DNA of 63,772 bases, the filler included, from Stramenopiles sp. TOSAG23-2 (Eukaryota), in assembly GCA_900128395.1 (NCBI GenBank). It is 9 parts of 9 records of this genome, joined end to end, with 100 filler letters (N's around TTAATTAATTAA, not from the genome) between each part and the next. Parts side by side here need not be neighbours in the genome. Positions count along the whole stretch, not along the records: positions 1 to 11,457 come from LT649934.1; 8 more parts are not named here. One strand, given 5' to 3'. This document shows, piece after piece, positions 875 through 57,564 of the stretch. The position numbers and the translations under genes were made by a program. The notes beneath the pieces were generated by a model. The model was not told the origin of the DNA, ran no database searches, and saw only the letters and a program-made list of their open reading frames with translations. Numbering within the stretch: position 1 is the stretch's first letter; each line of letters starts with the position of its first letter.

Positions 875-1490
875 TTAAATAACAGCGTATGCTTTTAAAC
901 TGCTCAGCAAAACATACATGAACCATAAAAAGACCAATGCTGCTGCTGTTATATTTTGTAAGCGTTTTGGACCTCCAAGTTCACCACCTACACTTCTACG
1001 ACGGAAATTTAAGATTGCAAAGCAACAACATGCGCATGTACAGAATACACCAACACTAAAACCTAATGCACCAGCAGGAACTGCAAACCCACCAGCCTGC
1101 AATGCATCGTCAGATATAATACCTTTATATTTAGCTTTCCATTCATCTGTTGGTCCACCATTAGCACCATTAATACCGGCCCAATATAAAGTTGCAATGA
1201 CCCATGGTAAACCTAAACCAAGGAATACATTGACAGAGTTACTACCGGTAATATTCCCAATAGATGCATCAGCATATGGATCCTGTTTTGCCGCTGTCAT
1301 ACTTGCAAATGTATCAGGTAACGATGTTCCAAGTGCAACGAATGTAATTGCTGTAACAGAATCTTTCAAACCAAATAAACAACCAAAGATAGCTGCTGCA
1401 TCACCAATAATAACAGTCACACCACCAATCATAGATAACGAAACAACAAAGCATGCCCATCCTCCGTTTGAGTGATGATGTGATGATGGA
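875..1490 (-). CDS. Na+/Ca2+ exchanger (NCX family), C-terminal alpha-2 half only; 5' part absent
   Basis: NCX motifs GGWACFVVSLSMIG, GLKDSVTAITFVALGTSLPDTFAS, ASIGNITGSNSVNVFLGLGLPW and GGELGGP. Homology extends upstream of the ATG at 1432 to a possible acceptor (TTTACACAG) near 1491. Confidence 0.8.
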
Positions 1491-1707
1491 CTGTGTAAAT
1501 ATACTGTTGTACAGTAGGTTAAATACTGTATTGATCTCGCTATAATAATAGATGTGCAGAAGATGGAATGTGCGAATAGAGGCCGTTAATGTTCACATTG
1601 TTTTTTTGTACTAGGTAGCTAGCTATTATATATTGAAATTATCATACATGCATCGTTACAATCATCACAATCATCCTATTTATTGAATTATTACATATCT
1701 CACATAT

Positions 1708-1753
1708 CCTCTCGTCGGAAAAACGCTAAATTGCCCCTCGGGGCAATTTAAGG
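1708..1753. repeat. Transposon 3' end: 12-bp TIR, 7-bp spacer, 24-bp palindromic inner repeat
   Basis: CCTCTCGTCGGA-aaaacgc-TAAATTGCCCC-tc-GGGGCAATTTA-AGG. Confidence 0.92.
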
Positions 1754-1990
1754 AACAAGGAAATAACATTACAGTAGTGATGTGTTGCTGTTAAAAAGTA
1801 CACGAACACAGCAGCTGCTACCCCCTTTATTTTTGTTAGGCAGAGAGGTAGTTGTATTAAGTATAAGAAAAGTGTATACTGAAAGAGTCGGTCAACTCAA
1901 AGATCATTTGAAGAAATATATATTTACATTATCTTTTTACACAAGCACACTTTACTTACAAAATGCATTCTGAGTATTCCAGCAGAGTTA

Positions 1991-2530
1991 CTACAATCTA
2001 GCTCCATCTGTACCATTTGCACTTCCATTCCATTCATCCGTTCCAATATATTTTTGTTCAACACGATTCTTTTCCACATCTGGTACTTCTTTGCCATGAT
2101 GATACAAATAGAAACAGTCCAATGAGCAATAGCTGGATAAACAGTTGATTTCTTGGCACATGAATTGTGCATTTGGCAAGGATGTACGTGGCAGCCCAGT
2201 TGGTCCTGGCCTATAAGATTCCCCATTACACCATTTTCTGCCAATTTGATTACAAACCTGGCAAGCCTTGTTTGAACGTCCATTAAAAGCTAATGGCAAA
2301 TGACCTGGTTCGTAGTTTCTAGCTTTCAGCCCTCTATTAGCACTATTACGTGGAATACGCATGGATGGATATGAATGGCCATTCGGTTTTTTTTTGCTTG
2401 AGTAAGCTTTCTTCTTTGCAACTTCTTTATCTTGCTGGCCTTTCCTTGAATCAAATTCTTCCATTGTCTCATCTTTACGTTGCGCTTTTGGACGACCTCT
2501 TTGATTTTTTTTATAAAGTGGTAAATGTTG
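1991..2530 (-). CDS. In-frame continuation of the transposase beyond TGA 2531-2533: AT-hook-like RGRP and C-terminal cysteine-rich domain
   Basis: Same frame as 2531..5317. Reads QHLPLYKKNQRGRPKAQRKDETMEEF...HLP...CQVC...CQEINCLSSYCSLDCFYLYH, typical of piggyBac CRD zinc fingers. Confidence 0.8.
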   Translation of the reverse strand, partial: QHLPLYKKNQRGRPKAQRKDETMEEFDSRKGQQDKEVAKKKAYSSKKKPNGHSYPSMRIPRNSANRGLKARNYEPGHLPLAFNGRSNKACQVCNQIGRKWCNGESYRPGPTGLPRTSLPNAQFMCQEINCLSSYCSLDCFYLYHHGKEVPDVEKNRVEQKYIGTDEWNGSANGTDGARL

Positions 2531-5317
2531 TCATAAACCAAGTTTTGATCGTACAATTGATAATTGGAAGTCATGGTGAGAAACAAATACTGGCTTTTTC
2601 ATTCTTGTTGTCCATTTGAAAGTTGGTTTTAAAAATGCTTCAATTTCTTCATCTGTTCGTACATCAACTTCTCTACCCCGTCTAACTTTAAACTTATCAG
2701 CTTCACGTTGGGCAGCCATATCCTTATCCCATTCATCATTGTACTTTTTCATTTCAGCTGCATACATAATTTCATATGCAATATAGGCTTGCGTTGCCCT
2801 TGTATTAATGACCCAGCAAAACATGGCCCATGTCCACTTCATATTGTGCCACATATGTTCACCATCAATTCTATAATACCACCTCTTGCGATCCTGGTTA
2901 TCAACCCCTCCCATGTACTTATTGTAAGCCTCAATCAATGTCAAACATAAAAATGTAATAACCTGTAAAACATACAGCCATACTCTGGTAACAGCATTAT
3001 TATCATTGTTATTATTGTCTGGAGGTGGTTGTACTTGTGCCGCTTCTTGCACTTGTGCCGCTTGTTGCCCATTTTCAGCTATATCCAACCTCTCAGCTTG
3101 ACCTACAGCAGCTCTTTGAGTACGAACATGCACATTCCGCTTCTTTTCTGTCATCATGCATTTTCCATGCGTATCCAACTCAACTTCTTTTGTGGTATAA
3201 AACTTCACCGGATCTTTACCATTATCATAGACATTCACAGCAATCATCCCAAATTTATCATTAGGAATACCTTTGCCAGGAATGTCAAAAATTAATGAAC
3301 GTCCATCATGGATTTGCTCAGCTTTTAAACGTTCTTTATCACTTGGTCGTGTCACTGTTGGAAGTAGTGCCTCTTTTGGAAATCCACGATTTTTATGAAC
3401 AACCTGTGTCATTAATACAGCTGCTTCCACAAAAGCATAATATGGTAATTTAATACCACTGTACAAATTGTCACAATAACATGTTCTCCATTTTCCTTTA
3501 ATGCAATCTTTGTTTAGCATATGCATGCAACGGTTTACAAGTGGGCTACAATCATGACGGACTTTTACTCCCTCTGGGCTATCTGTTCGGAATTTGAACG
3601 TGATCAAGGCTCCAGTTTTAGAGCAACAAATAGCATCTAATAATACGCCATCCCCTTCACGTTTGTACGTAATTCGGGTTTTACCAGCCATGAACGAACC
3701 CTGAAATCCCATTACTATTTCATCAAGCGAAAATCTTTCACCGCAAATGAATACATCTTCACATGCTAACATAAGCGCATCCAACATTGCCCGTGTTAGG
3801 TGTAGAACATCACCTTTAAATTCACCAACTAACGGTACCTCTACATCCGGGTCATTCATTCGAAGGTATGTTTTTAACTTCTCGACTTCCTTGTAAGATC
3901 CGTGTCCACCTAATGCTGCAATAACTTCAGGATTTCCAACCAATGAGTCCCGGGACCAATGGTAACGTAGCTGTGCACGCGGACATACACCATTATATAG
4001 CAAAACTCCTTGTGTCTTTTGCATTGTTTCTATTGTTGGTGCATCCTTAGGGTCATTCCCGGCAGCTATAAAATGATTTCGTGTCCATAGTAGCATCATT
4101 TCATCCCCATTTTTCCCATCAATTTTCCCGATAAAATGATCATAAATATCAACAGGCATCATATCATATTTCCATCCTAAGCTTGGATTAATTTTTGTAT
4201 CTTCATGACCCAATGTACATTCTGGCGGTGAATATTTTTGCTTATTAATTTCATCTAATGGTAACCACTCAGACGCAGCAAATAGTGGATCAGTAGGGTG
4301 TTGTGCAATATTACAACCAACACGTGGTGGACGAAGTGCAGTACCTGGTGGATCATCTGGATGTAGACGAGGTGCTACACTACCTAAAGGTATTGTTTCA
4401 GCAAATTTATACTCAGTTGGGCGTTGTGTTAAAGGGCATTTTGTATAAGCAGCTCTTGATTTATGACCATAGTAACCACAATGTTTACATTGAGGAATCA
4501 CATTTGGTGCATGTGGAACTTGTGCTGCACCTTGTAATAGAGGTTGTAACAAAGGTTGTTGGTCTTCTTGTTCTTCCTCCTCATCATCTGTACCATTGCC
4601 TAAATTAACTGTAACTGGGTCAACCTCATCACCGGGAACATGAAGTGAAGGCACAATATTAGACGCATCATTCACATTACCTTCTATAGGAATTAAAACC
4701 TCTCTTGTTCCTACAACATCGCGATTGGGGTTTTCTGTTGCTGTTGATGCAGTTTCTGTACTATTAGTAGTAGTTGTAGTAGTAGTAGTAGTACTTGTTG
4801 TTGTTGTTACTTCACCATCAACACTTCCATTGCTACTATCACTGGTATTATTATTATTACTTCCTGGATTATTATTATCAGTTGAAGATGATGCGTTAAT
4901 ATTAATATCAACAATGGTATGGTTGATTAATGGCACAGACTCATCATCGTCATTGTCATTTTCATCACTGTTATAATCTCCATCACCGTCTGCAATCAAA
5001 CTATTATTATCTTCCACATCACCTTGTTCTTCTCCCCCGTCTTTGTTGCTATCGATACCAATGATAATACTATTGTTATTGTTATTATTATTATTATTAT
5101 TATTTGTAGCTTGATCATTAGTACGTTGTTTTTTTTTGCTTTTTCTTCGTCGTTTTGAGACAGCCCTTTTTCTTCTTTTCTTATTAGAAAGATTTCTTTC
5201 CCTCTCTTCCTTTTCCTCATCTCTACGTGCTTGTTCTTCGACTACCTTTGCAGTTTTTTTCGTATTTCTACCTGATTTTCGTTGGCCATTTTTGCTACGA
5301 GTTACTCTCATTTTCAA
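2531..5317 (-). CDS. piggyBac-type DDD transposase, N-terminal and catalytic part (928 aa to the first stop)
   Basis: Catalytic motifs FSLDEIVMGFQG, CYCDNLYSG and YNKYMGGVDNQDR. CCHC knuckle CKHCGYYGHKSRAAYTKC. Basic NLS-like and acidic low-complexity N-terminus. Confidence 0.9.
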   Translation of the reverse strand: MKMRVTRSKNGQRKSGRNTKKTAKVVEEQARRDEEKEERERNLSNKKRRKRAVSKRRRKSKKKQRTNDQATNNNNNNNNNNNSIIIGIDSNKDGGEEQGDVEDNNSLIADGDGDYNSDENDNDDDESVPLINHTIVDININASSSTDNNNPGSNNNNTSDSSNGSVDGEVTTTTSTTTTTTTTTNSTETASTATENPNRDVVGTREVLIPIEGNVNDASNIVPSLHVPGDEVDPVTVNLGNGTDDEEEEQEDQQPLLQPLLQGAAQVPHAPNVIPQCKHCGYYGHKSRAAYTKCPLTQRPTEYKFAETIPLGSVAPRLHPDDPPGTALRPPRVGCNIAQHPTDPLFAASEWLPLDEINKQKYSPPECTLGHEDTKINPSLGWKYDMMPVDIYDHFIGKIDGKNGDEMMLLWTRNHFIAAGNDPKDAPTIETMQKTQGVLLYNGVCPRAQLRYHWSRDSLVGNPEVIAALGGHGSYKEVEKLKTYLRMNDPDVEVPLVGEFKGDVLHLTRAMLDALMLACEDVFICGERFSLDEIVMGFQGSFMAGKTRITYKREGDGVLLDAICCSKTGALITFKFRTDSPEGVKVRHDCSPLVNRCMHMLNKDCIKGKWRTCYCDNLYSGIKLPYYAFVEAAVLMTQVVHKNRGFPKEALLPTVTRPSDKERLKAEQIHDGRSLIFDIPGKGIPNDKFGMIAVNVYDNGKDPVKFYTTKEVELDTHGKCMMTEKKRNVHVRTQRAAVGQAERLDIAENGQQAAQVQEAAQVQPPPDNNNNDNNAVTRVWLYVLQVITFLCLTLIEAYNKYMGGVDNQDRKRWYYRIDGEHMWHNMKWTWAMFCWVINTRATQAYIAYEIMYAAEMKKYNDEWDKDMAAQREADKFKVRRGREVDVRTDEEIEAFLKPTFKWTTRMKKPVFVSHHDFQLSIVRSKLGL

Positions 5318-5605
5318 TTAAATAAAAAATATATCATTAACTATTAAAAAAGTACGCAATAAAAGAAATACCATACAAATACAATTACAGATGAACGTTA
5401 GAATCTATATTTTATACACATGTGTGGGTAAATGAGAAAATGTACAAACGTGCACCGTCCGTTTCAAATTTGAATCACTTCTAGATGGAATCATGATATG
5501 ATATATATATGTATACAAAGCTATGGATGTGTAGATTGCTTCTAGCCATTCATTTTTATGGTTGCCATCGAAATCTTCGAGATACAATTTTTTAAAAATT
5601 AGATC

Positions 5606-5644
5606 CCTTAAATTGCCCCCTGGGGCAATTTATCCGACGAGAGG
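5606..5644. repeat. Transposon 5' end: palindromic inner repeat directly abutting the 12-bp TIR
   Basis: CCT-TAAATTGCCCC-ct-GGGGCAATTTA-TCCGACGAGAGG; its reverse complement matches the other end with no spacer. Confidence 0.92.
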
Positions 5645-5736
5645 ATATATATATATACATTTCAAACGATCGATCGATGTAGAGAGAAAAGAGAGAAAGA
5701 CCAACCAACCAAAAAAAAAGACAAAGAAATGCAAAC

Positions 5737-6847
5737 ATGAGTTTAGAACAAAAAGCAGAAATAGCGAGTGGGAAAAACATCGATGATCCTGGTGAACAAG
5801 TAGTTGCAAAAGATTTTGTACCATTATTTAAATTAACGGATGCGAAGTACAATTAAATATTATGATTTATCACATAACGTCATTACCGACCCTGGCATAA
5901 TTACATTAGCGAAAGAGACGGTGCCAAATATGAAAGAATATTGCATTGAATATTTAAATTTAGTAGGTAATTGGTTTACATTGAAAATTGGTGTAAGTCT
6001 TGGTGATGCACTGACTGCCAATGCTTTTGCAAATCATATTAAATTTGAAGATACAAGTGGTTCAACTGTTGGAACATATGGTGGTTGTATATCAGCTGAT
6101 GAGATACGGCATGCTGAAGAATTATTGACCATAAATAATCGAGCAATGTGTGACGTATGTGGTAGTATCATAGCACGTATGATCCTTGCAAATGATGATA
6201 TACATAAAATTAATTTAGCAAGAAATCGTTTTACTAATCGCACTGCAGCATTGATTTGTGAAACCATATTGGATCATGGGTTTATAACTGAGTTAGATTT
6301 AAGTTGTAATAATGTTGATTTACAAGAACCAGACTTGAATAAACGTATTTTTGACTCATGTGGAAAAGCAAAAAAATTAACAAAATTACGATTAGATAGA
6401 AATGGCATTAATAATGATGGAATGTGGTCGATTGTCAGTTTCATTGGCTCCGATCCACCATTAGAAATGTTATCAATCCAAGGGAACAATTTCTATGAGA
6501 AAAAATGCTTTGAAATCTTGGTAAACAATTTAAAACTGAATCGTACGTTGATATGGCTCGATTTAAGATACAATCCTGCCTTTTTAAATCAATTAGTCAT
6601 GACTGGAGATGGATATCCAATGCTGGCATTTCAACTAAATCGCAGCAATAAAGATCTAGTATGCCCCCCATTTCACGATGTAGATATGGAAAATGAAATA
6701 CTAGCGCAGGATCAAGAGTATATGCATAAATTTAGGGAAAGAATGTTGAAAAAAATCCGTATAATGATGGATTCAAGTGGTGAGATGGATCAAGCAAGTA
6801 ACTTATGGTTAGGTAGAGCACAAAATTATGTTGAGCCAGGTGATTGA
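5737..6847 (+). CDS. Leucine-rich repeat protein (RNI/NLRC3-like LRRs), with an apparent frameshift near 5840-5855
   Basis: LxxLxLxxN repeats (YYDLSHNVI, INLARNRF, ELDLSCNNV, LRLDRNGI, LDLRYN) in 5840..6847. The ATG at 5737 opens a 39-codon frame offset by 1 nt. Confidence 0.75.
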
Positions 6848-11457: not shown

Positions 11458-11557
11458 NNNNNNNNNNNNNNNNNNNNNNNNNNNNNNNNNNNNNNNNNNN
11501 NTTAATTAATTAANNNNNNNNNNNNNNNNNNNNNNNNNNNNNNNNNNNNNNNNNNNN
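11458..11557. other. Artificial contig linker
   Basis: N44-TTAATTAATTAA-N44; the insert has stops in all six frames. Confidence 0.98.
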
Positions 11558-22978: not shown

Positions 22979-23078
22979 NNNNNNNNNNNNNNNNNNNNNN
23001 NNNNNNNNNNNNNNNNNNNNNNTTAATTAATTAANNNNNNNNNNNNNNNNNNNNNNNNNNNNNNNNNNNNNNNNNNNN
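22979..23078. other. Artificial contig linker
   Basis: N44-TTAATTAATTAA-N44. Confidence 0.98.
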
Positions 23079-34497: not shown

Positions 34498-34597
34498 NNN
34501 NNNNNNNNNNNNNNNNNNNNNNNNNNNNNNNNNNNNNNNNNTTAATTAATTAANNNNNNNNNNNNNNNNNNNNNNNNNNNNNNNNNNNNNNNNNNNN
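34498..34597. other. Artificial contig linker
   Basis: N44-TTAATTAATTAA-N44. Confidence 0.98.
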
Positions 34598-38070: not shown

Positions 38071-38802
38071 TTTATATATTTTTGCATCCAATAATTATTG
38101 TTCATATGTACAATTGATTTTCATATCTTACTGAAAAGCATAATATGTGTAATAGACATCTGCAATATATAAATATAAAAACATTTTTTATTTTTTAGAT
38201 CAATATAAATATACAGTAAATAAAATAATAAAAAATCATCATCAAAAAAAAAAAAAAAAAAGAAGATGAAAAAAACCAAAAAAAGTGCAAACCTAAAAAT
38301 ATTATTAAAAAAATAATTGTAAAATACCTTAACCTCTTGCAACATTTTGATAGGGGACATTTGCAAAATTAACATTCATAAAATACGCCCTACTACTACG
38401 GTCCGATTACGCTAGACTATAAGTGCGTAGGGGTACAACGATACAACGATGGAACAATTTCTTAATGTCAAATTACCATATACTAAGAAGTATAAACATC
38501 TTGAATTGAGAATTCTCACATCATCAATTTGGGCATTTGGTTCTTCTACTAGTGCACTACCTATTTTTACAGTTATAATATATCTATCCGGATTATTGAT
38601 GAAAGGTATAAATATACAAGAATAAAACAATTTGTCTAAGGATATACCAAGAGCAACAAATTCGTATATATATATATATATACATACATATAGTTTCTTA
38701 TATTCAAATAGAGAACATTGAAGACCAGGAATATATACGCACATACAAAATATATATAGCTTGATATATAGATAGATAGATATATATTGTATATATACCA
38801 AA

Positions 38803-38862
38803 ATGGATGATGCAGATGCAGCATATGAGTCCTTGAAATGGGCGAAAGAAATGTATCATAAA

Positions 38863-38903
<41 letters not shown>

Positions 38904-41900
38904 TAATAATAACGATAGCGATATAAGTGACTATGGGGAAGATGTTGATAATGTCGATATAATGAATGATGTTACTATAGATTTTAACAATAATGAAGAT
39001 ATGAATAGTGTTGATAATGGAACCATTGGTATGAATGATTTAGATAATTTAGTATCTCCCAACTCTATGGTTGCTTCTGGTGGATTTAGAGGTGACCAAA
39101 CCGTAAAACTTGCCGAGTTAGAACAGCGCTTAAAAATCGCAAACGAACGCGCAGAAAGATGGAGGCAACAAGCTGAAAAACTAGATTCAAGTGGCGTTTT
39201 AGATCCTATACGTCGCGCCTCTGACGTCGAGCGCTACCAAGCCCAAGTAAAAACATTGAGGAAGGAATTATGGGCGGCAAGGAAAGAAACGGAGGATTGG
39301 AAATTAAAAGAAGCCTCTGGAAGAGCAGAAATTGTTGCCTTGCGCTCTGCAAATAGTCGTTTAAAATCGAGATTAAAAGAAGCAGAAAATTTACAAGATA
39401 TTGTATCTAAAAGCTCCGATAGTAGTAAAAATGAGAAAGTAGAAGAGTTGACAGTTGCATTGGAAATTGCAAAACGTGAATTGACACGAGCTGACGATGA
39501 AATTGCGGACTTACGCATGGTATCCATTAAAGGTGATTCAGAAACAACAAGTTTAAAAGAAAAAATCAAAGCATTAGAAAATGAAAATATTAAATTAGAA
39601 AAACGGTTACAAGATGAATTAAATGATATTCGTCGTAATAATAACAATATAAACAATAGAAGAATGAGACACCAACCACAAAGTAATAATTATATCCCAG
39701 ATTCAGATGATGATGATTTAGACTCGGATGAAGATAGAAGTGTTGGTGCAACTACATTTAGTCGACAAATGAATAATAATAACAATAATAACGGGATGTA
39801 TGGCAGTCCAATGTCAAATAATAGGAATAGAGCACAACCAACTTCCCCTGTCGATAATGTTATCAAATCAATTCCAGAGCAAGTTGCAATTCGATTGCGT
39901 CGAGCGGCACAATTGAATCAAGAATTGCAACAGCGTATGTTTGCAGCAGAGGAAGAAGTCGAACGTTTGAAACAATTAGAGGATGGTCGATTTGAAAATT
40001 TAGAAGAAGAAAATAGATTGTTACAACGGAAAATCAATGATTTGAAAGAGGAAGTTGTTACACATCAAAATTCCTTGATTGCTGCTGATGCAGATTATCA
40101 AGAATTAAAAGCTATGCATGCTACAGAAGTAGCAGAATTGAAAAAGGAGCACACGGCAGTAGCAACGACATTGGCAATATTATCAAAAGATACTAAAGAA
40201 GTAGAAAGGTTAAAGGCAAAAAAAGTAGCTGCTGAAAAGGCGGAGAAAGATGCAAAAGCAAAATTGGCAAGTGAGCGCAAACGGCAAGTGTCGGCACAAG
40301 ATGCATTTGAACAGGAACAAGCTGCGGAGACGAAAGTTAGGGAAGAAGCGGCTTTAGTGGAACAAGCTAAACGGATACAAGACCAACACAGAAAACAAAT
40401 GGAAGAAGCGTTGAAAAAAAAAGAGGAAGAATTAAAGAAATTTTTGGAATTAGAAATGGCAGAGTTAAATAAAGAACGTGCTGCGCAGCAAAAAGCAAAG
40501 GAAGAAGCAGAACGATTACTGATGGAATCGCAAAAAGAATTAAGAAATATGGAAGGGGATGCTGAAAAAATGAAACGGGAGCATGATGAAGCTATGGAAG
40601 AACGATTAGCAGAAGAGCAACGCATGGCCGAAGCAATAGTAGAACAAGAACGTGCGAAAGCGGAGGAAGCAGCAAAAGTACATATTGAAGAACAAAAATT
40701 ATTGTGGGAGGAAAAATTGAAACTAACTGAAGATCGTTTAGCTAGGCAACATGAAATGGAGGTAAATACAATTAATAGCTTAGCAAATGAAAATGAAGAA
40801 CAAGTCAAAGCGATGAAATTAGAAATGGAAAGAATGCAAGTTGAACATAAAGAAAAAACAATAGCAGAAGAGCGAGAACGAGAGAGAAAACAAAGGGAAT
40901 GGGAGGAAATGGAATTTAAAAAGAAACGTGAACAAGAAAATGAATTATTCGAAATGGAAAAAGCAATGCGTAAAGCTAAGTTAGAACATGATGAAATGCT
41001 AGAAAAGGCTAAAAAAAAGAGCAGCAAAAAGGTAAAGGAAGCATTGAAAAAACAAGAGGCAGAAATGAAACGGCAAAAACAATTGCACGATGAAAAACAA
41101 CGTAAATTACAATTAGATTTGGAAGGGGATAAGAAAAAGCACGAGGCGGAATTGAAAAAACACGCCGAGGATGTAAAACGAAAGGAAGAATCATATCAAA
41201 GAGAATTAGAACAGCAAAAGAAACGTACGGAACAAATAAAACGAGAAAATGAATTAAAATTGCAAAAAGAGAAAGAATTAGCAGAAAAGCATGCTAGGCA
41301 ACAAAAGGAGGAAATAGCCAAAGCAAAAAAACTCCATGATGATAAATTAAAAGAAGCTAAATCGACATATGAAAATGAAATGAAAGATGCGAAGAAAATG
41401 CATGATCAGCACATGGAAAATACGCACAAACAGCTTGCGGCATCTTCTAGTGTTATTCATATATTAAACAAACGACAAGAAAAGAAAAAACGCAATGTTT
41501 TAAAATTTGCACATTCATGGAAAGGTAAGGCAGGGAAAAAAGGTGCGGAAAGAAAGGCAGAAGATGACATCCAAGAACGTGCTCGACAACATAGGGAAGA
41601 ATTGAAAAAAATGGGGCAAGATTTAGAGAAAAAAGTTGCAATGCAAAAAAAAAGTATAGAAGAGTTTGAAAAAAGAAGTGAAGAGGAATTTAAACGTAAA
41701 TTGCGTCAGCATGAAGAGGAATTAAAACGCAAGGAAGAGTTTCAAGAGCGTGAATTGAAAAAACGACAAAAAGAACACGAGGAACTAATGCGAGAAGCAA
41801 AATCACAACATAGCAAAGAGCTAGAACGACAATTACAAGACAATGAAAGGAAGGTCAAACAGGCGCAACGATTACTAGACGAGAAACACAAGGCACACGA

Positions 41901-44900
41901 GGCGGAGATTGAGCGAATACGGAAAGAGCAACAAAAATTTGAAAAGGAAAAAAATATTGAGTTTGAACGCCAATTAAAGAGGCAAGAGGAAGAAATGAAA
42001 CGCCAAGAACGTGAGGCGGAGCGTGAATTAGAAAGGAAAAGAAAAGAACACGATGCGTTGATGGCACATGCGTTGACAAATGCGAGCGCCCAAATGGATA
42101 GACAATTAGCTGAAAATGAGAGAAAATTGGCCGAGGCAGAACGTATTGCTAATGAAAAAGCTAGGAAACATATGGAAGACGTAGAACGCATGAAACATGA
42201 ACATGAAGAATACTTAAGAAAGAAGCACGAAGGTACAGAAGCACGCTTAGAAGCGAGGGATAGGGAACTGAAGGAGAAGGAACAAGAGAAGAAAAGAGAA
42301 TTAGAGAAACGCCAACAAGAGCATGATGAACTAATGAAAGAGGCAAGCAAAACACATAGTGCTGCATTAAATAAAGCCTTGGAAGAAAATGAACGGAAAC
42401 TAAGGGAAGCACAAAAGGCTACTGATGAAAAACATGCAAAACACCAAGAAGAATTGAAGCGGCTTAAAAAAGAGCAGGAGAAATATTTACAGGAAAAGCA
42501 TAAGAAAAATGAAGCATTGATTGAAAAATTAAAACATGATCAAGTTTTACAAGTAGAAAAAGCAAAAAAGCAACATGCCATCACGATGAAATTCTTATCA
42601 AAAATGGAACAGAAAGGAAAAGAACGTACAAATATGGCAAAACGCTTAGGTGGCAAGTGGCGAAATATAACTGGCAAACGAAAAGAAGTCAATAAAGTCA
42701 AAGAAGAAGCGATGGCTAAGGTAAGGGCAGCTGAAGAGCATCAACAAAAAACGGCGGCTGCATTGAAGGCAAAGGAGGAGAAACTACGCCAAGAACTAGA
42801 ACGTGAGAAACAAAAAATGAATGCTGTGATGGAAGAAGAGGAAAGAAAACGTCGTGAGTTGGAAGAGAATCTATCAGCAGATAAAGCCAAATTGGAAAAG
42901 CTGCAGGAGGAGCATAAATCGAAGGCATCGACAAAATCATTCAATAATGTCATGTCTAAATGGGCTAATAGAAGCAAAGAGCGCAAAAAGGCATTGCAAT
43001 TGCAGAAGGAAAGGGAAGAGGCAGATCGCAAGTTAAAGAAAGAGGAGGCAGATAGAATAAAGGTGGAGAAGCAATTGAAAGCACAGGAAATGGCCATGAA
43101 AAATCAAGAAAGTACGTTAAAGGAGAAAGAGGAGGAGCATAGAAGATTCAAGGAGGAACAAGAAGCTAAATTAGCAGAAGCAAAGGACAAACAAAAGCAA
43201 TTAGAAGAGGAAACAAAGGAAAAAGCGCGGACGTTGGAAAGGCAGAAACGTTATGCAGAGGAAGAAAAAAAGAAACAAGAAGACAAATTCAAGAAAGAAC
43301 AAGAAGAATTGCAACAAAAATTAAAAAAGCAACAAAACGAAATGAGCAAAAAATTACAAGAACAACAAGCACAGCTGGAAAAGGAGAAGAAGAAAATGGA
43401 AGAAAACCTAAAGAAGCAAAAAGAAAAGATGAAACGTTTGGAGTTGGAAAGCAAGCGTAGCTCAAATAACTTAAAAAAGAGGATGGAGTTAGAAACTGAA
43501 CGGGAAAAAGAACTTGCTATGCAACAGGCATATGATAAATCAGAATTAGAAGCTGCTAAAAAGTTAAAAGTGGAGCATGAAGCCGCTGCAAAAAAATTAA
43601 AAGAAGACCATGATAAAGCAGCCATGTTGTTAAAGAAAGAACGAGAAGAAAAATTAAAATCTGTTGAAGAAAAAGAAGAATTATTGAAGAAGGAACGTGC
43701 GGAACACAAGCGTATGCAACAGGAAATGAAAGCTCAGTCGGAGAATGTATTGCAGGAAGAGAAAAAATTGGCTGCATTGGAAAGGAAGAAATCAAATCTT
43801 AGGGAATCAAAGTTAAAAGAAGAGTTGAAAGTTGTTAAAGAGAAAGCATTGAAAGCAAAGATGGGAAATTTGTTGGGAAACAAAATGGCTGGTCTCAAGA
43901 TGAAGAAAAATTCCTTGATACGCAAATTTGCAAGTAAATGGAAGAAAAAAAGTGATTTAAATAAAGCATTAAGTAAGGTAGAAAAAACATTACTTGCCGA
44001 GCGAGAAGCAGCGGAAGCAAAGGCATTGGCACATAAGAAATTACAATTAAAGTTAACGAAATTGGAAAAGGAGGTAAGCGAAAGCAAAAAGTTAATAGCT
44101 AAGAAGGAAACGGAATATAAAGAAAAATTAGAAACGTTGGAAAAATCACATCAAGAAAAAATAACCATCATGGAAAAACAGGCAGCGGAATTGAAAGTTT
44201 TGGCTGAAGAAGCTGAAGGTAAAAAAGGATCATTAGAAAGTGAAACAAAAGTCATGGTCAAACGTTTGGTAGACAAGGTGGAAGGAAAAAATGATTTATT
44301 GCATCGTGCTAGAATACGAGTAGCTAAACTAGAAGCTGAACGGAATGTATTAAAGAAAAAATTAGAGCAATATCGTTCCAGGGAAGCAATGATTGCCGAA
44401 GAAGCTGCAACGGAGGCAGAAAGACAGGTGATAGCATTGACAAAATTACGCAAACAAGTTGAAGAAGATAGTGAGCATATGGATAATTTAAATGCTTTGC
44501 AACGTAGCTTTGATCCAGATATACTTGTAATGACGCATAAAAAGAAATTAATGCAAGAACAGCAAATGCAATATTTAAATAGTGTACAGCAGCAGCAACA
44601 ACAACAACAACGTCAATCACCGTCACCAACGTTAGATATGCCACAAAGGCCAATCATTGATACATATTCATCGCCGGCTGGTAAAATGTTTGATACTTTC
44701 TTAGACGCAACAAATGAGGTTAGAAATAATATCAATCGTGCTGATACATTTGATATATTTTCAGGTGTACCAAGAGGTATGCCAAATAGTCCTTCGCAAC
44801 AAATTCAACATCAACAAAAAATGCAACAGATTCAAAATTTGAAACAACAATTGGAACAATTGCAACAACAAGGAATATCATCATCATCTTCTCGTCGTAA

Positions 44901-45369
44901 TTCACCAACTGCTAGTTTTGAAACAAAACTCGATAATTTCAATACAAATAATAATAATAATAATAATAATAATAGTAATAATGGTTCGATGGAAAATAAT
45001 ATTAATAATGTATACCCAACACAACGTCAACAAGAAGGTCATGAAAAAATGGCCTATTTAAATCGTTTACAAATGGAAGTGCAAAATGCTAGAAAAGAAG
45101 TGGATGCTGCTAAAGAGGCTATACGGATACAAAATGCACGTTATTCAAATCTAAGACCCGAAAATAATTTCAAAAAATTAAGTATGGGTGATCGACTTTT
45201 GCAACATAGAATGGAAGTTCCAATGGAAGGAATATTTAATAATACTGATGTGAACAGGTTACCATCCCGTCATGGTGGACAAACGAAAATTGCTAGTAGC
45301 GTATCTAAGAATAGAGTGCATATTACCAGGCAAGGCAGTGTTTACATAGATACAGATGACAACATTTAA
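38803..45369 (+). CDS. Giant coiled-coil protein (2,188 aa)
   Basis: Long E/K/Q/R-rich helical ORF with N-rich termini and three 91-aa internal repeats. Confidence 0.85.
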
Positions 45370-45985: not shown

Positions 45986-46085
45986 NNNNNNNNNNNNNNN
46001 NNNNNNNNNNNNNNNNNNNNNNNNNNNNNTTAATTAATTAANNNNNNNNNNNNNNNNNNNNNNNNNNNNNNNNNNNNNNNNNNNN
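45986..46085. other. Artificial contig linker
   Basis: N44-TTAATTAATTAA-N44. Confidence 0.98.
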
Positions 46086-48123: not shown

Positions 48124-51100
48124 TTAGAAAAACAAATCAGCTCGCGGTGATAACACAAGTTTACGATCGGCAGCTTCATCTTTCGATACAGCACCGCCAG
48201 TACTTGTACTAGCACCTACTTTTGGCTCTTGGTCTTCACCCTTGGATCCAGTTTCAGCTGCAGCGACTTTTACTGGACCTTGAGCACCAGAAATACCACC
48301 GTCATTAGGGCTTTTGCCTAATCCAGTTGCACCAGAAGCATGGATTGGTTTAGGTACACTTCCACCAGTTGCTCCTAGTTCTTCTGGTACTTGTTGTGTC
48401 ACATTCTTTTTCTCAGCATCTATTATTTTCTTTTTGCGTTCTTGAACCATTTTACGAATGGTATCTACATTGGTTTTGTTATCTATTGCCTTGATTACTA
48501 CTGGTTGAACAGGCACAGCTCTTGCTTTTGTTTTCTCATCCCCTTGTCTGATCAATTCTTTTAAACCAGTTGTTTGAACTTCATCACTGCCTGTAACAGG
48601 TGCGGAACCATCACCTAATGTCACGGAACCATCTACATTTACTATTGGTGTTTTGCCATTTAATTCAATCGTTGATAATTTACCATCTTTCAAATCCGAA
48701 CAGCAATAAATACCAGTCTTTTTCTGGAAATTACAGTAACCACCTTCATTCGCTGTGCCACAACCTTCTCCTTTCATGGATGCAATAAAAACGTTGAAAC
48801 CAGATGCAGCGCCATATTTAGCCTTTCCAGCTTTTACTGGAACAGTTGATGTAAAACCACAAGCACATACATCGAAACCACCACTCATACTATTTCTAAC
48901 TTCCTCCTCAGAACATACATGTGCCTTCATGTTCACACCTTTGATTGGTGCACGACATTTAGCAGCAGCTTGAGCAAAGGTAAATTGACCTTTAGCATAC
49001 CAAATTGCTTTTTGAAGTGGCGAATCAACTTTTTCGTTATTGATACCTAATTTTTCCAATATAGCAAGTGGTGTTGAGCCGATTGGCAATAAATCTTTAG
49101 GATCTACACTGCTTTCAATTGCTTTTTCAATACCAACTTTCTCTGCTTCAAAGTCCTTTTCTTTCATGAATCTACGTGGTATTGGGCCAGCTCCATTTTT
49201 AAACGATGCAGATTTTGCAGATAAGAAAGCATCCAAAGCTAAGCGTGCATGTCTCGCTTTCTCTTCTGTTTTTTCAACTGCTATCGTTGTTTTATTAGCA
49301 TCATCTTGCAACGAGGCTACCAAGTCACAACGCTTAATTACCAACATTGCAGTTGCGTTTGCTCTTTCATTAGCACCGGAAACTACACTTGCATCTTCTG
49401 CTTGTGGACTTGCGCCATATTGTTTTACTTTTTCGTCATATTCTGCTTTTGCGCTATCCGCTTCTCTGCGTGCATATTTACATTCACTGAGGGCTTTTAC
49501 CAATTTTTCATTGATATGATACAATGACGATTTTGCTTTTGGTACTGCTAACAATGTTTTCACTAATACATTCTTCAATTCTTTAGTTTCTGGAGCATCA
49601 CGTGGATTGATTGCTACCACTTTAGGTAGGTCAACAACATTTTCTTTCTTCTCTTCCAATGGGAGTCCTTTCACTACAGAATCCATTCCAGCTGCTTTTA
49701 ATACAGCTTTAGTCTCCGTTACTTTGTCTCTTGCGGCATCTGCATTAGCACTTGCTACGTTAATTTTCTTTTGAAGATTATCAACTGCGGTTTTAGCTGC
49801 TTTTACACGATTGTCAGCATCAATAACAATGGCATCACCAAGACTTGGATCAGCACGGCTTTTTTGCATTGTTTGGGCATATACTAATTGCGCTGCTGCA
49901 AGTTCTTTGTTTAAGCGAGGTTTTTCGACAATTAAATTATTCAAATCATTTTCGATACGTTTGCGCATCTTAATAGCATACACTATTTGCTTTGGGGCTG
50001 GTGGTGGAGTATTTACTGCACCAGTTGCACCAGTAGCACCAGTAGCACCTGTGGATGCAACACCTACATTTAATTGACCTTGGTTGAATAATTTTTCAGC
50101 TTCTGCTTCTACTGCGCCAGTTGCACCAGTTCCGCCAGTTCCGCCAGTTCCACCAGTTCCGCCAGTAGATGCGCTACCAGTACGTCCCGTGACAGTTGGA
50201 ACCTTCTTCTTTTTTGGTTTCTTTGGAGCTTTGACCTTTTTCGAAGTTTTGTTAACGGCTTCAGTACTACCAGTTGCAGCAGTTGCTGATCTTTCCGTTT
50301 CTTCTACAAGTTTTGCAGCTTTCTTTTCTGCTTCTTTCTCTGCTGCTAATTCCTCATCAGATTTATCATTCTCTGCACGAGGTCCATCAATAGCTTCTTG
50401 TGCTAATTTTGCTGCTTTCGCTGCCTTGATCAATCGTTGTTTTTTCAACTCAACAGAAATACGGTGCTCACCTTCTGCGCTACCACCCGTTGCACTTTTA
50501 TTCAAACCGTCCACGGTTTCTTCAGCAACACTTTCATTCTTCGATGCTTCTAACATTTTCTTTTTTGCTTTTGCTTTTGCCATGACCTGTCTTGCTTCAA
50601 TTGCTGTTGCACTGTTACCTGTCATACCACTAGCAGCTGCGCCCGTGATAGCCTCAACATCCAATTTTGGTGCGGCATTTCCAGTTGCCTCCACGCCACC
50701 ATCAGCGCCAGTAGCACCACTTGCTGCTTGTCGCCTTGCTTCTGCTGCTGTTTCTGCATCTTTCTCTTCATCACGTTGTACATCCAATGCAGTTTCTTCT
50801 TGTGCCATAACCATTTCAAGGGCACGTGCACCACGTTCTTGATGTACGTAATCTGCTAATGTTTTTTCAGCAGCAACTCGGATTGCTTTTTGCCCAGCTT
50901 CAGCCATTGCGTATTTAGATTGAGCTGCTTTGATAGCTAATCCGATATCTTGTATGTCTTCTGTTACATTCGCAATTTCACTATGCAATGCGCTGACAGA
51001 TGCACGTCTATTAGCAACGTTACTTGTCAAATTCTTATCATCCGTATCGTTTGCTGTTTTCTTCAATGCCAGAGCTGCTCGTAATGCACCATCTGCAACT

Positions 51101-54100
51101 TGCAAATCACCTTTTAATTTTTCTAATTGGTGTTGAAGTTCGAATTTATTTACAACACGAGTTAGATATTGATAATGCGCATTTGCTTGTTTCAATACTG
51201 CAGCGGCTACCTTTTTGCTTTTCTTCGTCTCTTGCCATGCAATAATTGCATGCATGAATTTTCCTTTTGTCATTGGAACAGAAGCGTTTGCCGCTTTCAC
51301 GCGAAGTTTCGCTTTTTCAACTTCTTCTTTGCAATGTTCCTCCAACGATTTAAATTCACTTGGATTGTTTGCACCTCCACAACCATTTTCTAGATCCAAT
51401 TCACGCAAGTAAAGATTCTTCCCAGCAGCATCAACTTCTGCAAGTGCTTTAACCAAATCTTTTTTCACATTTCCAAAGTTTGTACCAGCTTGTTGTTCTC
51501 TTGCAGTACCATTTCTATCCCCGACTTGAGCTTGCTCGATAAATCTACCTGAAGCTGCTTTACGTTTCAAAGCCTTTTGATATGGTGTATCCGTACTCAA
51601 AATGCCAGCATCTGCTTCAATATCACCATGTGATTTTGCTTTACCAGCTTTCAATGGTGGTACGACAACTGCATGTTTTGGCTTTTTGTTCAACTTCTCC
51701 TCTGGTTCTACTGGCAATGGTGGCAAACCTTTTTGTGCCCGTTCATAATTAATTTGTGCAACACGTGCAACTTCATTTTGTGTTTTTTTAGCTAACAATT
51801 CGTAATCAACTTTTTTACTTTCGCTTACAACACCATTTTCACAATCATTTTTGCAACGTTTTTTCAAAGCTTTATTTTGTGCTGTAACAGCAGCATGTAC
51901 TTGCGGCGTAACAACATCAACTTGTGCAGCACTACCTTGTACTGAAGCATCATCTTTTCTCAATTGGATCAATTTTTTACGAATTGGTCTAATTTGAGAC
52001 GAAATTTTAGCCACAGTCACGTTGTCACCTTCTGCAATTGCTTTATGCATCGCAATTTCTAATTTACGCAAACTTGCTTCATCTTTTGAAATTAACTTTT
52101 GCAATCGAACAGTTTCTTGTTTGATCAAATGGTCATTCGTTCTTTGATTTTCATCTTTTGCAACGTCATCGATTTTATTTCCATCGGTTGCGTTCTTGGC
52201 ACCACCAGTCATCGATGGATCTTCGTTCGCTGCACCAGTCGCACCAGTCGCTCCAGTTGCAGATACAACTTGAGCAAGTTTGAAGTCGATCTTGACTTGC
52301 GTTACGTGTTTCAAACCACTACCTTTAAACATTGCTAGTAAATCATCTGGTTTTTTTAACTGCTCTTTGAACTTAGTATCAATGGAAGCTGCTACAGCTA
52401 CACTAGGTGCTGCAATTTCAAATTCAATGTCTATGCCTACAATTGATGCATTTCCTAATTGTAAAAATCCATCCATTGAAATGTAGGAATCAGATGACAA
52501 CTCAATGAACTCGTCTACTGCATCGTCAATACCTGATTTTGGACCTGTAGCTTCTTCACCATCTGCATCTTTGCCACCATTATTAGCATCCTCTTGCAAT
52601 GGATCTTTGTATGATAATATATTTACTTGAGTAACATCTACATCAGCAATTTCTGCGATTACATTACGAACTTGCAATTTTGCTTCCTCATCGAAAGATT
52701 CTGCGGAATATCCACCAAGTGTAAGAGATACTTTGGAACGTAAGCGTTTTGGGAAACGTTTCAATACGGAAATATGTTCTGCAGATGGTTTGTCATCTTC
52801 GTTCACGGTGTCCAATACAGATTTTGTACTTTTCTCCAACTCTTCTTGTTTCTTGATACCATCAACGTCTTTTGATTTGAGTGTATTCAAAGCTTCTTTT
52901 ACACGAGACAACTTCTCTTTCTCGCTTTGCTCTACTTGTTGAATATCAGCAACTTCATCTTTTTGTTGTTCTGCATCTGAAACGGCGCCAGGTGTGTTCT
53001 TATCTTGTGCCTCACGCATACGTTGTTTCAATGCTGTTGTGGCATCCTTTTCTTGTTGTTCCTCTTTTAGTAAACGTTTTGTTTCTGATTCGACAGCTGT
53101 TTTAATCGTAGTTTCAACTTTGCCAAGGGTTCTCTTTGCATTGATGGTATCCGCTTCTTTCTTTGCCATCGTATCTGTAGCTACATCAAGGCGTTTCTTA
53201 AGTTGTTTTTGTTCTTCCTTGTTACCCTCTTTTTGTGCTTTTTGGATTTGCAATTTAAGTAGCTTGGATTCGTCCTTTAATTTCGCAGCATTTTCCTTAT
53301 CAACGGTTTCCAATTTCTCTGCTTTTTCACCTTCTTTTTCAATCTGTTTCACTGTATCAACCATATCAGCAGATTCAACATCAATAGGCGCAACATCTTC
53401 ACCACCGGTGGAACCAGTGCTACCTGTCGCTCCAGTCATCATACTAGCAGTCAATGGAGATATCTCGGTTGGCAATTGTCCAGGTTTATCTGTACAACTA
53501 CCATCCTCCGTTTTTGGCTCGTAACATCTACCCAATGATTCACACCAAAGCATACCTTCATTTTTCCAATCGCAACCTTTTTTCAAGGATGAACTGATCA
53601 TAGCTTCTGTAACTGGATGGTTATTGCGTCTTTTTGGAATACCAAGCATGGCATCATCTAATACTTCAACTTTTTTATTCTTCTTTTGCAATGCCAATTC
53701 ATTAACAGCTGCTTTGTCTTTTAAGTTCATGGTGCGCTTTTCAATTGCTAATGCAGCTGCAAAGTCTGCACCCATGCCAGAGGCACCGGATACACCAGTG
53801 GAGGCAGCGCCAAATGCACCAGTTGCGCCAGTTGCGCCAGTAGAACCAGATGCACCAGAAATACCAGTCAATCCCGTCATTCCCGTCATTGCAGTTCCAC
53901 CAGTTCCGCCAGTCTCTTCATCATCATCCTCTTTATCGGGCATTTCCCCGAAACCAGAATCAGAATGATCAATAGCAGGGCCAACTCTTCTACCAGCTGG
54001 TTCAATGGTACCAGGTTCTTCCTTCATCAAATTTGGAACAGCTTTGCTACCTAAGATATCTCCAGTAGTCCTTAATACATCTGCATTAACACGCATGCCG

Positions 54101-57100
54101 CCAGGTGTACCCGCTTTCTTTTCATGTAAAGCAGCACCACTGGATATATTACCTTCGTAACGCATGTCAAGAATAGCTGCTTCAGCAATTTTCTGGCTTC
54201 TTTCAGCATCTTCGATCATTTTATTCGAGTTTAAAATATTTTGTTCGCTTGTTTTGATACGTTTATTTGCAGCAGTTAAATTCGCTTCTGCATTTTTCAA
54301 TAAAGTAGTTGCATTTTTGCCATCAATACTAGCTTGTTTTGCCATTGCTCTTGCACGTACAACCCTTTGAAGTGCATCTCTTGCAGTTGCATTTGCATCT
54401 TGTTTACGTGCGTTTAAACTTTCCATCTCAGCTTGTAATTTGGATAATTCAGTTACACTAAAGTTCAAACGTTTCTCAGTCGTAGCAAGTATTTTCTCTG
54501 AAGCATTGACTTTTTTCTCTGCTTGTGCAACTTGTCCTTTCACACCTGCAATTGTTGCTTGATCTTGATTGCCTGCAGTAGCACTTTTCAACACATTTTC
54601 TTCCGTAACAGCTTCTGCTTCTTCTGCTTTCAAATTGCTTTTGTCTTTTTTCAATTGTGATGTTAAGGATGAAACAATACTGTCCAGACTTTCGACTTGG
54701 ATTTTATGTCTTTGAATTTTACCAGTGACTTCTTTCAACTCTTCCAATGCCTCTTTGCGATTTTTAAATGCTGCTTTTGCTAAAACTTCTGAATTACGTG
54801 CTAGGCGAGTTGCATTTGCAATGCGGCCTTGTGCTACTTTCATCAACGTCAAAGCAGTGTTTTTTGATTTGGTAGAATGTCCTCGTGTAATGTATGCATC
54901 TCTACGGATTTGTTTTGCTTTTTCCGTTTGGTTTTTGCTCAATTCAGAATAATTTTGTGCAATGTTGGCACTTTTCTCTGCTTTGATTCTAGCATGCATT
55001 GCTATCGCAGCTTCATTGGCATCGTTGGTCGCATCATTGAAGCGTTGGCATGCAACACGTGCATTGGATACCAATAATGCTTTTTTCGCTTCCATTTCTG
55101 GTGCCATATCAAGCTCAATGAAAGATGTTTCATTTGCCTCTGTTTCATTTGCCTTTTCAAATTTCTTCAATTTGAACACAGCATGGTCACAAGCACGTTT
55201 CCATGCATCTGCTGATTTGCGCAATTTTAAAATACTTTCAAAACTAGATGGGTCATCTTCTGGTGCATCGTCTTGCATTGGGTAGGTATATGTAATACCA
55301 ACACCAAACCACATTTCACCACCATCAACACTACCTTGCACGGTAACTGATTGTGGCATAGAGACGCCATTTTCAACTTGTGCAGGTGGAGTGCATTTTA
55401 AATATTGCCCAATTTTTTTCGTAACAGGATCTTTTCCACGTACCATGACACCAGATACAACGCGATCCATAAATTTACAACGATAAAAATCCGATTGTGC
55501 CGCTACTTGTAAATTTTCTGATTTGAACAATGCAGGTGCTAATGTTTTACCATCTACTTGGAAACTACCTTTGATTGGTCCAGGGATCAAAACAGGTTCG
55601 CCTTTTGCGCCTTGCTCTTCTGCTTTTTTCTCTGCTTCCTTTGCAGTCAATTCTTCAATTGCTTTTGCATGTTGTTCCTTAATCGAATCCATCGTGGATT
55701 CATGTTTGTTTACAATATTTGTATGGTGTACCTTACGATCTTTACGAAGTGCTTTCAATTGTTCATGATGTTGCGAAGCAACACGTTCCATTGCATCTTG
55801 ATGTTGTGATAAGATTAATTTTACTTTATCCTCGTTCACATTTTTCTCACTTTTACCACCATTAATAGCATTGACACTTTCTTCCGTTTCCATCGATGCC
55901 TTTTGGTTTGCATGTCTTTTCTTTGCCTCTGCTAAACTTTTAACATGTCGTACATGAATTTTGTTTAAACTTGCTTCGTGTGCTAAATGAATTTTTGCCA
56001 ATGCTTCTTTATGAGTTGCATGTATTAAATCAACGGCACCATTTCTTGCTGCTTGTATGACTTCATCTAACGTTCCCGCTTTTGGTCCCATGTATGCTCT
56101 TGCAACTGCATTTTTAATCTTTGCCAATGCATTTTCATGTTGTGCTTTCACGTGTTCCATACTTGCTTTGTGTGTTGCAACTACACGTCTCACAGCAGCA
56201 GTATGTGCTGGTGATTGTGGTTTAGATGTTGCAATGATTTTAGCTAAACCGGCTATACGTGATCTAATCTCTTCTAATTCTGGTTTTACTTTATCACCCA
56301 TGCGTAAAATATCCATCGTTGCGGCGGATACTGGTTTCAATCCATTCAAGCAACGTGTACATTTACCTGTCTTGCTATCTGTTTCTGCGCACTTTAAACT
56401 ACAACCATTATTTTTTAACAAAGCTTTGCGTTCTACCGCATTAATGGTAGCTAAACGTTGTGGTAACTTTGCCATAGCAAATGTCTTTGCTAAAACTTTT
56501 TCTACATTGCCTTTCTTCTCTTTCAAGACAGCTAACATTCTCACAACAGTTTCGCGGTTGTTTGTCAAACGAGTGATCAAACGAGAGAATAATGATGCTT
56601 GTAACTCACATTCTTTCGTTGTATCCATTAATAATTTTGTTTCTGCTTCATATACTTTACGTAAAGCACTTAATGCATCTTCTGATAGTGGTAACTTTAA
56701 ATTGTTATTTTGTACAATCTTATGATTTACTTTTGCCAATTCTTTCTTATCTTTTTCAATTTCACTTTGCAAACTTTCTTGTAAATCATTTGCTTTACTA
56801 TTAGTCTTCTTCCTATCATCACTACTCCTACGCACTGCTACTACGTTTTTATGTTTATTCCTATTTTTACTATTACTATTAGCATTTAATAAGTTATTAT
56901 TATCATCAATCTTATTATTGCTTTTGAAACCAACCAACTCCAACAAGGATGTAGCTAAGCTTTTCGTTGCTTTGCTTTCCAATTGTCTGGTAGCATTTAA
57001 AAGTCTACCTTTGGTTGCTTTCAATTTGGTACTAGCACGTTCCGTTTGTAAACGACATGACGTTTCCATAGCTGAACGTTCCTTCAATAAAGTATTAAGT

Positions 57101-57291: not shown

Positions 57292-57464
57292 TTTTTTTAA
57301 ATCAAATCTCTCGTCGTTTTTTTTAACTACTATAGATATATTCCTAAAATCAAACAACAAAAATTAATTATAAAATTAATATGTTCTTCCCCTATAAGAT
57401 TTATATATATATATATTCACGTGTGTCGCACACCAAACTATCAATGTAAATATAAATATATTCC

Positions 57465-57564
57465 NNNNNNNNNNNNNNNNNNNNNNNNNNNNNNNNNNNN
57501 NNNNNNNNTTAATTAATTAANNNNNNNNNNNNNNNNNNNNNNNNNNNNNNNNNNNNNNNNNNNN
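57465..57564. other. Artificial contig linker
   Basis: N44-TTAATTAATTAA-N44. Confidence 0.98.

Follow-up and report, generated by a model that had tools for sequence, protein, structure and literature searches.

A single in-frame TGA in the transposase gene of a TA-flanked piggyBac-like element is very probably a recent nonsense mutation

A 63,772-nucleotide stretch of DNA from Stramenopiles sp. TOSAG23-2 (assembly GCA_900128395.1; nine records joined end to end, called the window hereafter) carries a piggyBac-like transposon whose transposase gene, on the minus strand, is interrupted by one in-frame TGA. An earlier note on this DNA had left two readings of the stop, an inactivating nonsense mutation or a regulated readthrough. 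The comparison with sister copies and relatives favours the former: the TGA is very probably a derived CGA>TGA nonsense mutation, with the truncated transposase most likely inactive and the element a young, non-autonomous copy. This reading draws on a CGA codon at the same place in a closely similar copy and on a sense codon in 12 of 12 aligned relatives.

The interrupted reading frame in the window, its sister copies and its relatives

The minus-strand open reading frames (ORFs) 5317..2534 and 2530..1994 form one frame, and the TGA at 2533..2531 is its sole break. ORF listing and translation confirmed what the earlier note had described, coordinates included: two ORFs in the same frame, parted only by this codon. 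Counted from the first ATG (5311), the TGA is codon 927 and the closing TAG (1993..1991) is codon 1107, with 926 codons upstream of the TGA and 179 open codons from there until the TAG. The read-through product would be 1,106 amino acids long from this ATG and 1,108 from a TTG, the latter being the length given before. The stop lies in the context GGT TTA TGA CAA CAT TTA, its +4 letter being C. The RGRP motif (2500..2489) and the Cys-rich domain (2263..2099) were found intact behind it, and the order of core, RGRP linker and Cys-rich domain also held as previously stated. The parts of the gene are listed below.

2534..5311, minus strand: transposase frame before the stop, 926 codons, with a low-complexity N-terminus, a CCHC-like knuckle and a core with three catalytic Asp (DDD core); PF13843 and family-profile matches
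4457..4489, minus strand: N-terminal Cys-x2-Cys...His...Cys knuckle (CKHCGYYGHKS...); conserved in P0002, P0003 and P0023
3722..3724, minus strand: presumed first catalytic Asp (SLDEI); invariant column in alignment A1, aligned to SLDE of piggyBat
3470..3472, minus strand: presumed second catalytic Asp (CDNLY); invariant column in A1, aligned to MDNYY of piggyBat
2900..2902, minus strand: presumed third catalytic Asp, in YNKYMGGVDNQD; aligned to piggyBat YNKHMKGVDRAD and kept in relatives
2531..2533, minus strand: in-frame TGA, codon 927, followed by C; read from the sequence, TGA also in runs X1 and X2, CGA in run X4
1994..2530, minus strand: open frame after the stop, 179 codons, encoding a basic linker and the Cys-rich domain; aligns colinearly with 12 relatives at their C-termini
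2489..2500, minus strand: RGRP, an AT-hook-like core; GRP at the aligned place in P0027, P0037, P0043, P0067, P0090, P0004 and P0005
2099..2263, minus strand: Cys-rich domain, C-x2-C ... C-x4-C-x4-C-x3-C-x4-H (CQVC ... LYH); Cys/His columns of 14 sequences
1991..1993, minus strand: TAG closing the read-through frame; ORF reading

The openness of the downstream frame was compared with shuffled sequence. A frame of 179 open codons was obtained in 1 of 200,000 mononucleotide shuffles (analytic P 2e-6), and the other two frames of the same stretch hold 2 and 17 stops. The downstream stretch is thus coding now or was so recently; this statistic says nothing on actual read-through.

Relatives were collected by a word-indexed search, an exhaustive HMMER search and a metagenome scan. 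The word-indexed search gave five homologues (P0002 at 46% identity, P0003 at 32% and three others at 29-40%), the HMMER search 341 proteins at E<=0.001, 8 of them at E<=1e-30, and the metagenome scan 58 loci with a top identity of 36%. The C-terminal alignment A2 consists of the window and 12 rows of 22-42% identity to it, representing 11 distinct proteins (locus L001 encodes P0024). No stop interrupts any of the 12 rows between the third catalytic Asp (YN..GGVD motif) and the Cys-rich domain, the linker included. At the stop column the four closest relatives have P, K, S and P, each followed by a conserved Q; the window has SKLGL-stop-QHLP where they have SKLNL-P-QIEP, SKLGF-K-QEVE, SKLGL-S-QVHP and SKLGL-P-QAHQ. 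Thus, the alignment at this codon that the earlier note had proposed gave no conserved stop. The raw DNA of L001, L002 and L003 is a single open frame across the stop point in all three cases, and a pattern scan of the 58 loci for core and Cys-rich domain in one frame recognised only these three, its motif being too strict for distant loci. Six Cys and the His of the C-terminal domain are invariant across 14 sequences, and all of them are intact in the window. Because the relatives run stop-free and these Cys/His positions are invariant, the downstream frame belongs to the conserved, normal make-up of the transposase, and the stop is found only in the window's lineage. No close relatives were found in prokaryote genomes and viral contigs, and the products of the window's three ORFs have no exact match in the protein collection.

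Contigs from four sequencing runs (X1, X2, X4 and X20) were placed on positions 1400-5900. X1 is possibly the window's own source, X2 comes from another study under another organism label, and X4 is a run of 2025; X1 and X2 are small, with 8.8 and 6.6 million letters of contigs. The uncovered parts are 1400-1701 and 5779-5900 in X4, the RNA of X20 covers 9 of 30 bins, and no inference was drawn from the gaps. Contigs of X1 and X2 (records 4 and 9) cross the stop site without differing letters and both have TGA. Since two runs from two studies agree, the TGA is no sequencing error, an outcome that the earlier note had asked the reads to decide. X1 and X2 also have the window's left flank and represent the same insertion.

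The X4 run contains a sister copy. Its contig record 23 (3111 nucleotides, depth 22.9) is about 95-97% identical to the element, with 44 mismatches over 1705-2602 and 54 over 2734-4731. Its letter at 2533 is G and not A on the plus strand, and codon 927 is CGA (Arg); a sense codon such as CGA in a sister copy was what the earlier note had named as refuting its readthrough proposal. The downstream frame is kept in X4, the only indel within 1994-2530 being +3 nucleotides. Between the two matching parts, the 131 nucleotides at 2603-2733 are replaced by 143 (a difference of 12), and indels that are not a multiple of three (+7, -1) are confined to the untranslated tail. Among the listed differences between window and X4 (21 substitutions in 1994-2530), 12 codons are non-synonymous and 5 synonymous, with the lineage of change unassignable. 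None of these substitutions makes a stop or falls on an invariant column, and the three listed changes upstream of the stop are all synonymous. With so few listed substitutions and no assignable lineage, a selection test has no power in either direction.

Readings of the stop

Under the nonsense-mutation reading, a single intronless gene would normally give one polypeptide, composed of knuckle, DDD core, basic GRP linker and C-terminal Cys-rich domain. Codon 927, originally CGA (Arg), would have become TGA by a C>T transition at a CpG in the lineage of window, X1 and X2; we infer this direction because every relative has a sense codon. Translation would then end right after the conserved ...FQLSIVRSKLGL motif and yield a 926-amino-acid protein without linker or Cys-rich domain. 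In piggyBac, the palindromic internal repeats are bound by the Cys-rich domain, without which cleavage, joining and transposition fail (PMC5861402, PMC7351741). The truncated product is for this reason most likely inactive, and the copy would be a young pseudogene that moves only with transposase supplied in trans.

Several points weigh against this reading. The direction CGA>TGA leans on outgroups that have other sense codons. The TGA is the sole lesion across 1,106 codons, with the three catalytic Asp and all invariant Cys/His intact, and it is placed exactly at the boundary of core and linker. The C at +4 is one positive readthrough feature at this stop, the UGA-C tetranucleotide having shown exceptionally high readthrough in yeast (excerpt of PMC4748822). 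X1 and X2 have no alternative letter at 2533, and no intact copy was seen in these partial data. An unbranched X2 contig (1705-3758) starts at the very point at which two different left flanks join, and the contig is deeper than its flank in both runs (8.14 vs 4.63 in X2, 12.4 vs 6.6 in X1), contig depth not being copy number. Provided that such contigs end at every difference between copies, an unbroken contig reached from two flanks implies that both insertions have the same sequence, TGA included. These observations suggest that the TGA-bearing sequence is present at two or more loci and hence has moved after the mutation.

The same observations could be accounted for by a derived TGA at which the UGA-C context lets a few ribosomes through, leaving a weakly autonomous element in which the stop is tolerated and unselected. 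The tetranucleotide context (PMC4748822, in the excerpt cited), a frame without any other defect and the hint of two insertion sites with the TGA sequence, no intact copy being seen in X1 and X2, fit such an element. Against it, the +4 C alone matches a known stimulator and no downstream structure accompanies it: the 146 nucleotides from just before the stop have a minimum free energy of -16.7 kcal/mol vs a shuffle mean of -19.8 (z +0.94), that is, no RNA structure beyond that of shuffles. Supply in trans by an uncaptured intact copy would explain the second locus equally well, X1 and X2 being small. The messenger RNA may moreover be subject to nonsense-mediated decay, its stop lying well ahead of the normal end. 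Taken together, we regard this alternative as unlikely. We hold no likelier the further proposal of a self-throttled autonomous element of a TA-integrating clade, in which the TGA element, present at two or more sites with no intact copy, would have transposed on rare full-length transposase made through the leaky UGA-C.

Regulated readthrough had been put forward in the earlier note as a control mechanism. In this form, the stop would be programmed and selected to set the ratio of Cys-rich-less to full-length transposase. The UGA-C, the lack of another defect and the two-site hint apply here also, together with a stop at a domain boundary directly behind a conserved motif. The stop is absent, however, in 12 of 12 aligned relatives and in the 95-97% identical X4 copy, which has CGA, and the stop lacks an RNA structure (z +0.94, as above). 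The literature gave no piggyBac precedent among the matches listed on readthrough of its transposase, which concern, by their titles and abstract openings, piggyBac as a vector or unrelated matters. Longer 3' sequences that we take to be readthrough consensus motifs are matched at this stop in their first bases only. The proposal is thus not supported, and we consider it very improbable. UGA-C and a long open frame behind it are insufficient for calling recoding; as a readthrough candidate the stop has little weight, being very probably a nonsense mutation of one lineage, such as inactivates many copies of transposons.

Removal of the stop by splicing, misreading of the letter and a selenocysteine codon were weighed in the same manner. 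A 42-nucleotide in-frame GT..AG mini-intron (2538..2497) would join ...SKLG to RPKAQ..., its GT at 2538-2537 and AG at 2498-2497 enclosing a multiple of three. The relatives are, however, colinear in raw DNA and have the same Q after the stop column, the X4 copy is open here with CGA, and the host genes examined in the window need no intron; such an intron is extremely improbable. Among these host genes, those for MCM7, glutathione synthase, a sulfotransferase and an FGE-sulfatase are each covered over the full Pfam domain by one ORF, one ORF of 2721 codons encodes the BEACH protein, and the start of the MCM7 gene and the end of the HhH-GPD gene call for no intron. Introns of 21 or 54 nucleotides before the third Asp were considered along with that of 42 over the stop and dropped, the relatives being colinear. 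That the TGA is an error of sequencing or assembly, or encodes selenocysteine, is hardly credible: X1 and X2 agree on it with no differing letters, at this codon P, K, S or R and not Cys is found in the relatives, and a search of 1500-5800 against Rfam gave no selenocysteine insertion sequence (SECIS) or other element at E<=1 except a chance microRNA match at E 0.88.

The genetic code was examined from the host genes. TGA ends ORFs at 512, 6847 (leucine-rich repeat protein), 22251 (BEACH protein) and 37207 (GDSL lipase), the latter three with Pfam support, and in-frame TGA is absent from long host ORFs of 2721, 2197 and 3079 codons. TGA is therefore a stop here, and the view of the earlier note that it is not reassigned, taken from the ends at 512, 6847 and 22251, was upheld.

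Ends, target site and domains of the element

The gene sits in a 3.9-kb transposon (1705-5647) with inverted terminal repeats and subterminal palindromes, of which the window has one copy.

1705..5647: whole piggyBac-like element, including the edge TA at 1705-1706 and 5646-5647; inverted repeats, X1/X2 contigs diverging at the edges
1705..1719, plus strand: left terminal repeat TATCCTCTCGTCGGA; identical 15-mer inverted at 5647..5633, its TATC(C/T)C start also found in relatives
1727..1750, plus strand: left subterminal 24-nucleotide palindrome with 11-nucleotide arms, 7 nucleotides inside the terminal repeat; repeat analysis
5609..5632, minus strand: right subterminal 24-nucleotide palindrome, abutting the terminal repeat (spacer of 0 nucleotides); repeat analysis
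5633..5647, minus strand: right terminal repeat, the same 15-mer as on the left; repeat analysis

The palindrome spacers are unequal, 7 nucleotides on the left vs 0 on the right. Independent confirmation of the element boundaries comes from contigs of another insertion in X1 and X2: they match the window as far as 1705 and 5647, and exactly beyond these positions their sequence is a different one. The plan of terminal repeat and subterminal palindrome recurs in L001, L003 and L010, and an 18-24-nucleotide palindrome stands behind the terminal start in at least four members (the window and these three). The ends lie at 371-409 and 4101-4144 in L001 and at 2903-2940 and 6415-6458 in L003, against 1705-1750 and 5609-5647 in the window. 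The TATC(C/T)C start was found in L001, L003 and 12 further loci (L005, L008-L011, L016, L017, L020, L022, L025, L035 and L041), and the sequence outside the TA is unrelated.

The flanks were compared for a target-site duplication. In the window, ATAT borders the element on either side; the flanks are GTAT/GTAC in L001, CTAT/ATAC in L003 and GTAT/ATAG at the second X1/X2 insertion, and only TA is common to all of them as a direct repeat. Of the 14 related loci whose ends could be recognised, not one has a TTAA flank, and the TTAA target-site duplication, a defining feature of the piggyBac superfamily, is not found at this element. According to passages of PMC5381638, TTAA is a general feature of the superfamily, with rare single exceptions, ATAT among them, ascribed mostly to mutation. 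A TA duplication with element ends starting TC appears to be the simplest reading of the flanks, and it suggests a piggyBac-related lineage that would integrate at TA and not at TTAA. No description of a TA-flanked piggyBac clade was found in the titles and excerpts of the literature searched. Several members of the clade have CTA...TAG flanks, a hint of a CTAG-like target.

Other contigs of X1 and X2 touch the element as well. One joins 1943 to 3650, as in an internal-deletion derivative, its 3650-3758 part having 4 differences, and is found in both runs. At 1705 and 5647 the element is also joined to other flanks, a contig of X1 departs from the window before 2419, and the summed depth over the end repeats is 25-42 vs 4-9 in the flanks (X1, X2). 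The same cells thus seem to contain additional members of the family. X20, a marine poly(A) metatranscriptome, has two contigs of 151 nucleotides (3021-3171 and 3271-3421) with one difference each to the transposase core. They lie outside the stop and point only weakly to transcription in the sea, of this element or of a copy almost identical to it; carried-over DNA may also be their source.

The domains of the transposase were examined on both sides of the stop. The upstream part matches Pfam PF13843 (DDE_Tnp_1_7) at E 7.9e-13 and 48.9 bits vs a cut-off of 22.4, the match spanning only profile positions 36-246 of 349; the same family is present in five of the five homologues from the word-indexed search. 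The family profile matches piggyBat (9c0f, E 1.7e-9) and piggyBac (6x67, E 7.3e-6). SLDEI, CDNLY and GGVDNQD align with SLDE, MDNYY and KGVDRAD of piggyBat, and the first two Asp columns are invariant in alignment A1; from what we know of the piggyBac family, we take the Asp residues of the three motifs to be catalytic. Judged by its domain, the three Asp and its general architecture, the transposase is a member of the piggyBac superfamily. The downstream part has no Pfam family at E<=0.01. The AlphaFold model of its 179 amino acids has a mean predicted local distance difference test (pLDDT) score of 62; by 10-residue blocks, the score is 71-86 for residues 71-100, 50-62 for residues 101-120 and 87-88 for residues 121-140. 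A Foldseek search of this model against the PDB gave no match at E<=0.001, piggyBat being the best (E 0.86) and the Cys-rich domain of PiggyMac following at E 4.2.

The N-terminus is of low complexity except for the CCHC-like knuckle (C-x2-C-G-x-x-G-H-K-S ... C) set in it; we know of no such knuckle in canonical piggyBac. A Gln/Ala/Asn-rich insertion (about 2960-3110, minus strand) directly precedes the third catalytic Asp and is missing from all relatives; the X4 sister contig spans it without gaps.

Host setting and comparison with known systems

The window is AT-rich, with 27-42% GC in 2-kb bins, and its host genes lie in long unbroken ORFs: a BEACH/FYVE protein (2721 codons), MCM7 with a winged helix, eukaryotic glutathione synthase, a sulfotransferase and an FGE-sulfatase-type enzyme. 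The host is an AT-rich, intron-poor marine eukaryote (protist). The element was detected in runs labelled with two organisms and, at low shares of matching words, in numerous metagenomes from marine, seawater or aquatic sources; from the low shares in 15 such metagenome runs no habitat claim was drawn. Two giant ORFs, 38776-45369 (plus strand, 2197 codons) and 48124-57363 (minus strand, 3079 codons), have no Pfam match at E<=1e-5, and the former lies in extreme strand skew (AT skew about 0.5 and GC skew about 0.33 at 40-44 kb). A search for NAD-kinase exons in the window found nothing. Eight pairs of 44-N runs with 12 bases between the two of each pair (11458-11557, 22979-23078, 34498-34597, 45986-46085, 57465-57564, 59042-59141, 60619-60718 and 62196-62295), none of them near the element, look like masking rather than assembly gaps.

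A nonsense-mutated copy is an ordinary phenomenon, and the family is mildly interesting. The element appears as a very young, nearly intact member of an undescribed piggyBac-related clade from marine and other aquatic metagenomes. Its ends are well defined, its N-terminal knuckle is conserved, and its flanks favour integration at TA over TTAA. Should the choice of TA hold true, the clade would offer a natural system for testing target recognition by piggyBac-type enzymes.

The element shares with piggyBac of Trichoplusia ni and piggyBac-like elements (PBLEs), piggyBat included, the DDE_Tnp_1_7 core with three catalytic Asp, the single intronless gene, and the short terminal repeat followed by a subterminal palindromic repeat at unequal spacers. 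Its Cys-rich part, on a basic linker and C-terminal as in piggyBac, is a putative counterpart of their Cys-rich (cross-brace zinc finger) domain. The piggyBac ends are given as a 13-bp terminal inverted repeat and a 19-bp internal repeat in passages of PMC5381638 and PMC7351741. The relationship is nevertheless distant, the Pfam match being partial and the PDB matches being reached through the family profile. The window element differs from piggyBac and the PBLEs in being flanked by TA (ATAT) and not TTAA and in having ends that start TATC in place of the conserved C (PMC5381638, same passages). It differs also in the long low-complexity N-terminus with its CCHC-like knuckle, and in a Cys-rich part without a Pfam family or a significant fold match.

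Defective PBLEs are common: 43 of 107 query sequences had stops or frameshifts and 64 were potentially functional, as stated in PMC5381638 (excerpt). Like them, the window copy has a stop in an otherwise recognisable transposase; unlike them, it has one lesion only, which removes exactly the presumed DNA-binding C-terminus. Because the lesion is single, the copy appears very young. With programmed readthrough of the retroviral gag-pol type or at cellular UGA-C stops, the window shares the UGA-C and a long conserved frame behind it, whereas its stop is not conserved among relatives and no downstream structure is found.

PiggyMac of Paramecium is likewise a piggyBac-family enzyme, acting at sites in which only a central TA is conserved (PMC3408717, excerpt). 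Members of the family thus need not be specific for TTAA. Unlike the window element, which is a transposon with its own ends, PiggyMac is a domesticated gene of its host that excises internal eliminated sequences.

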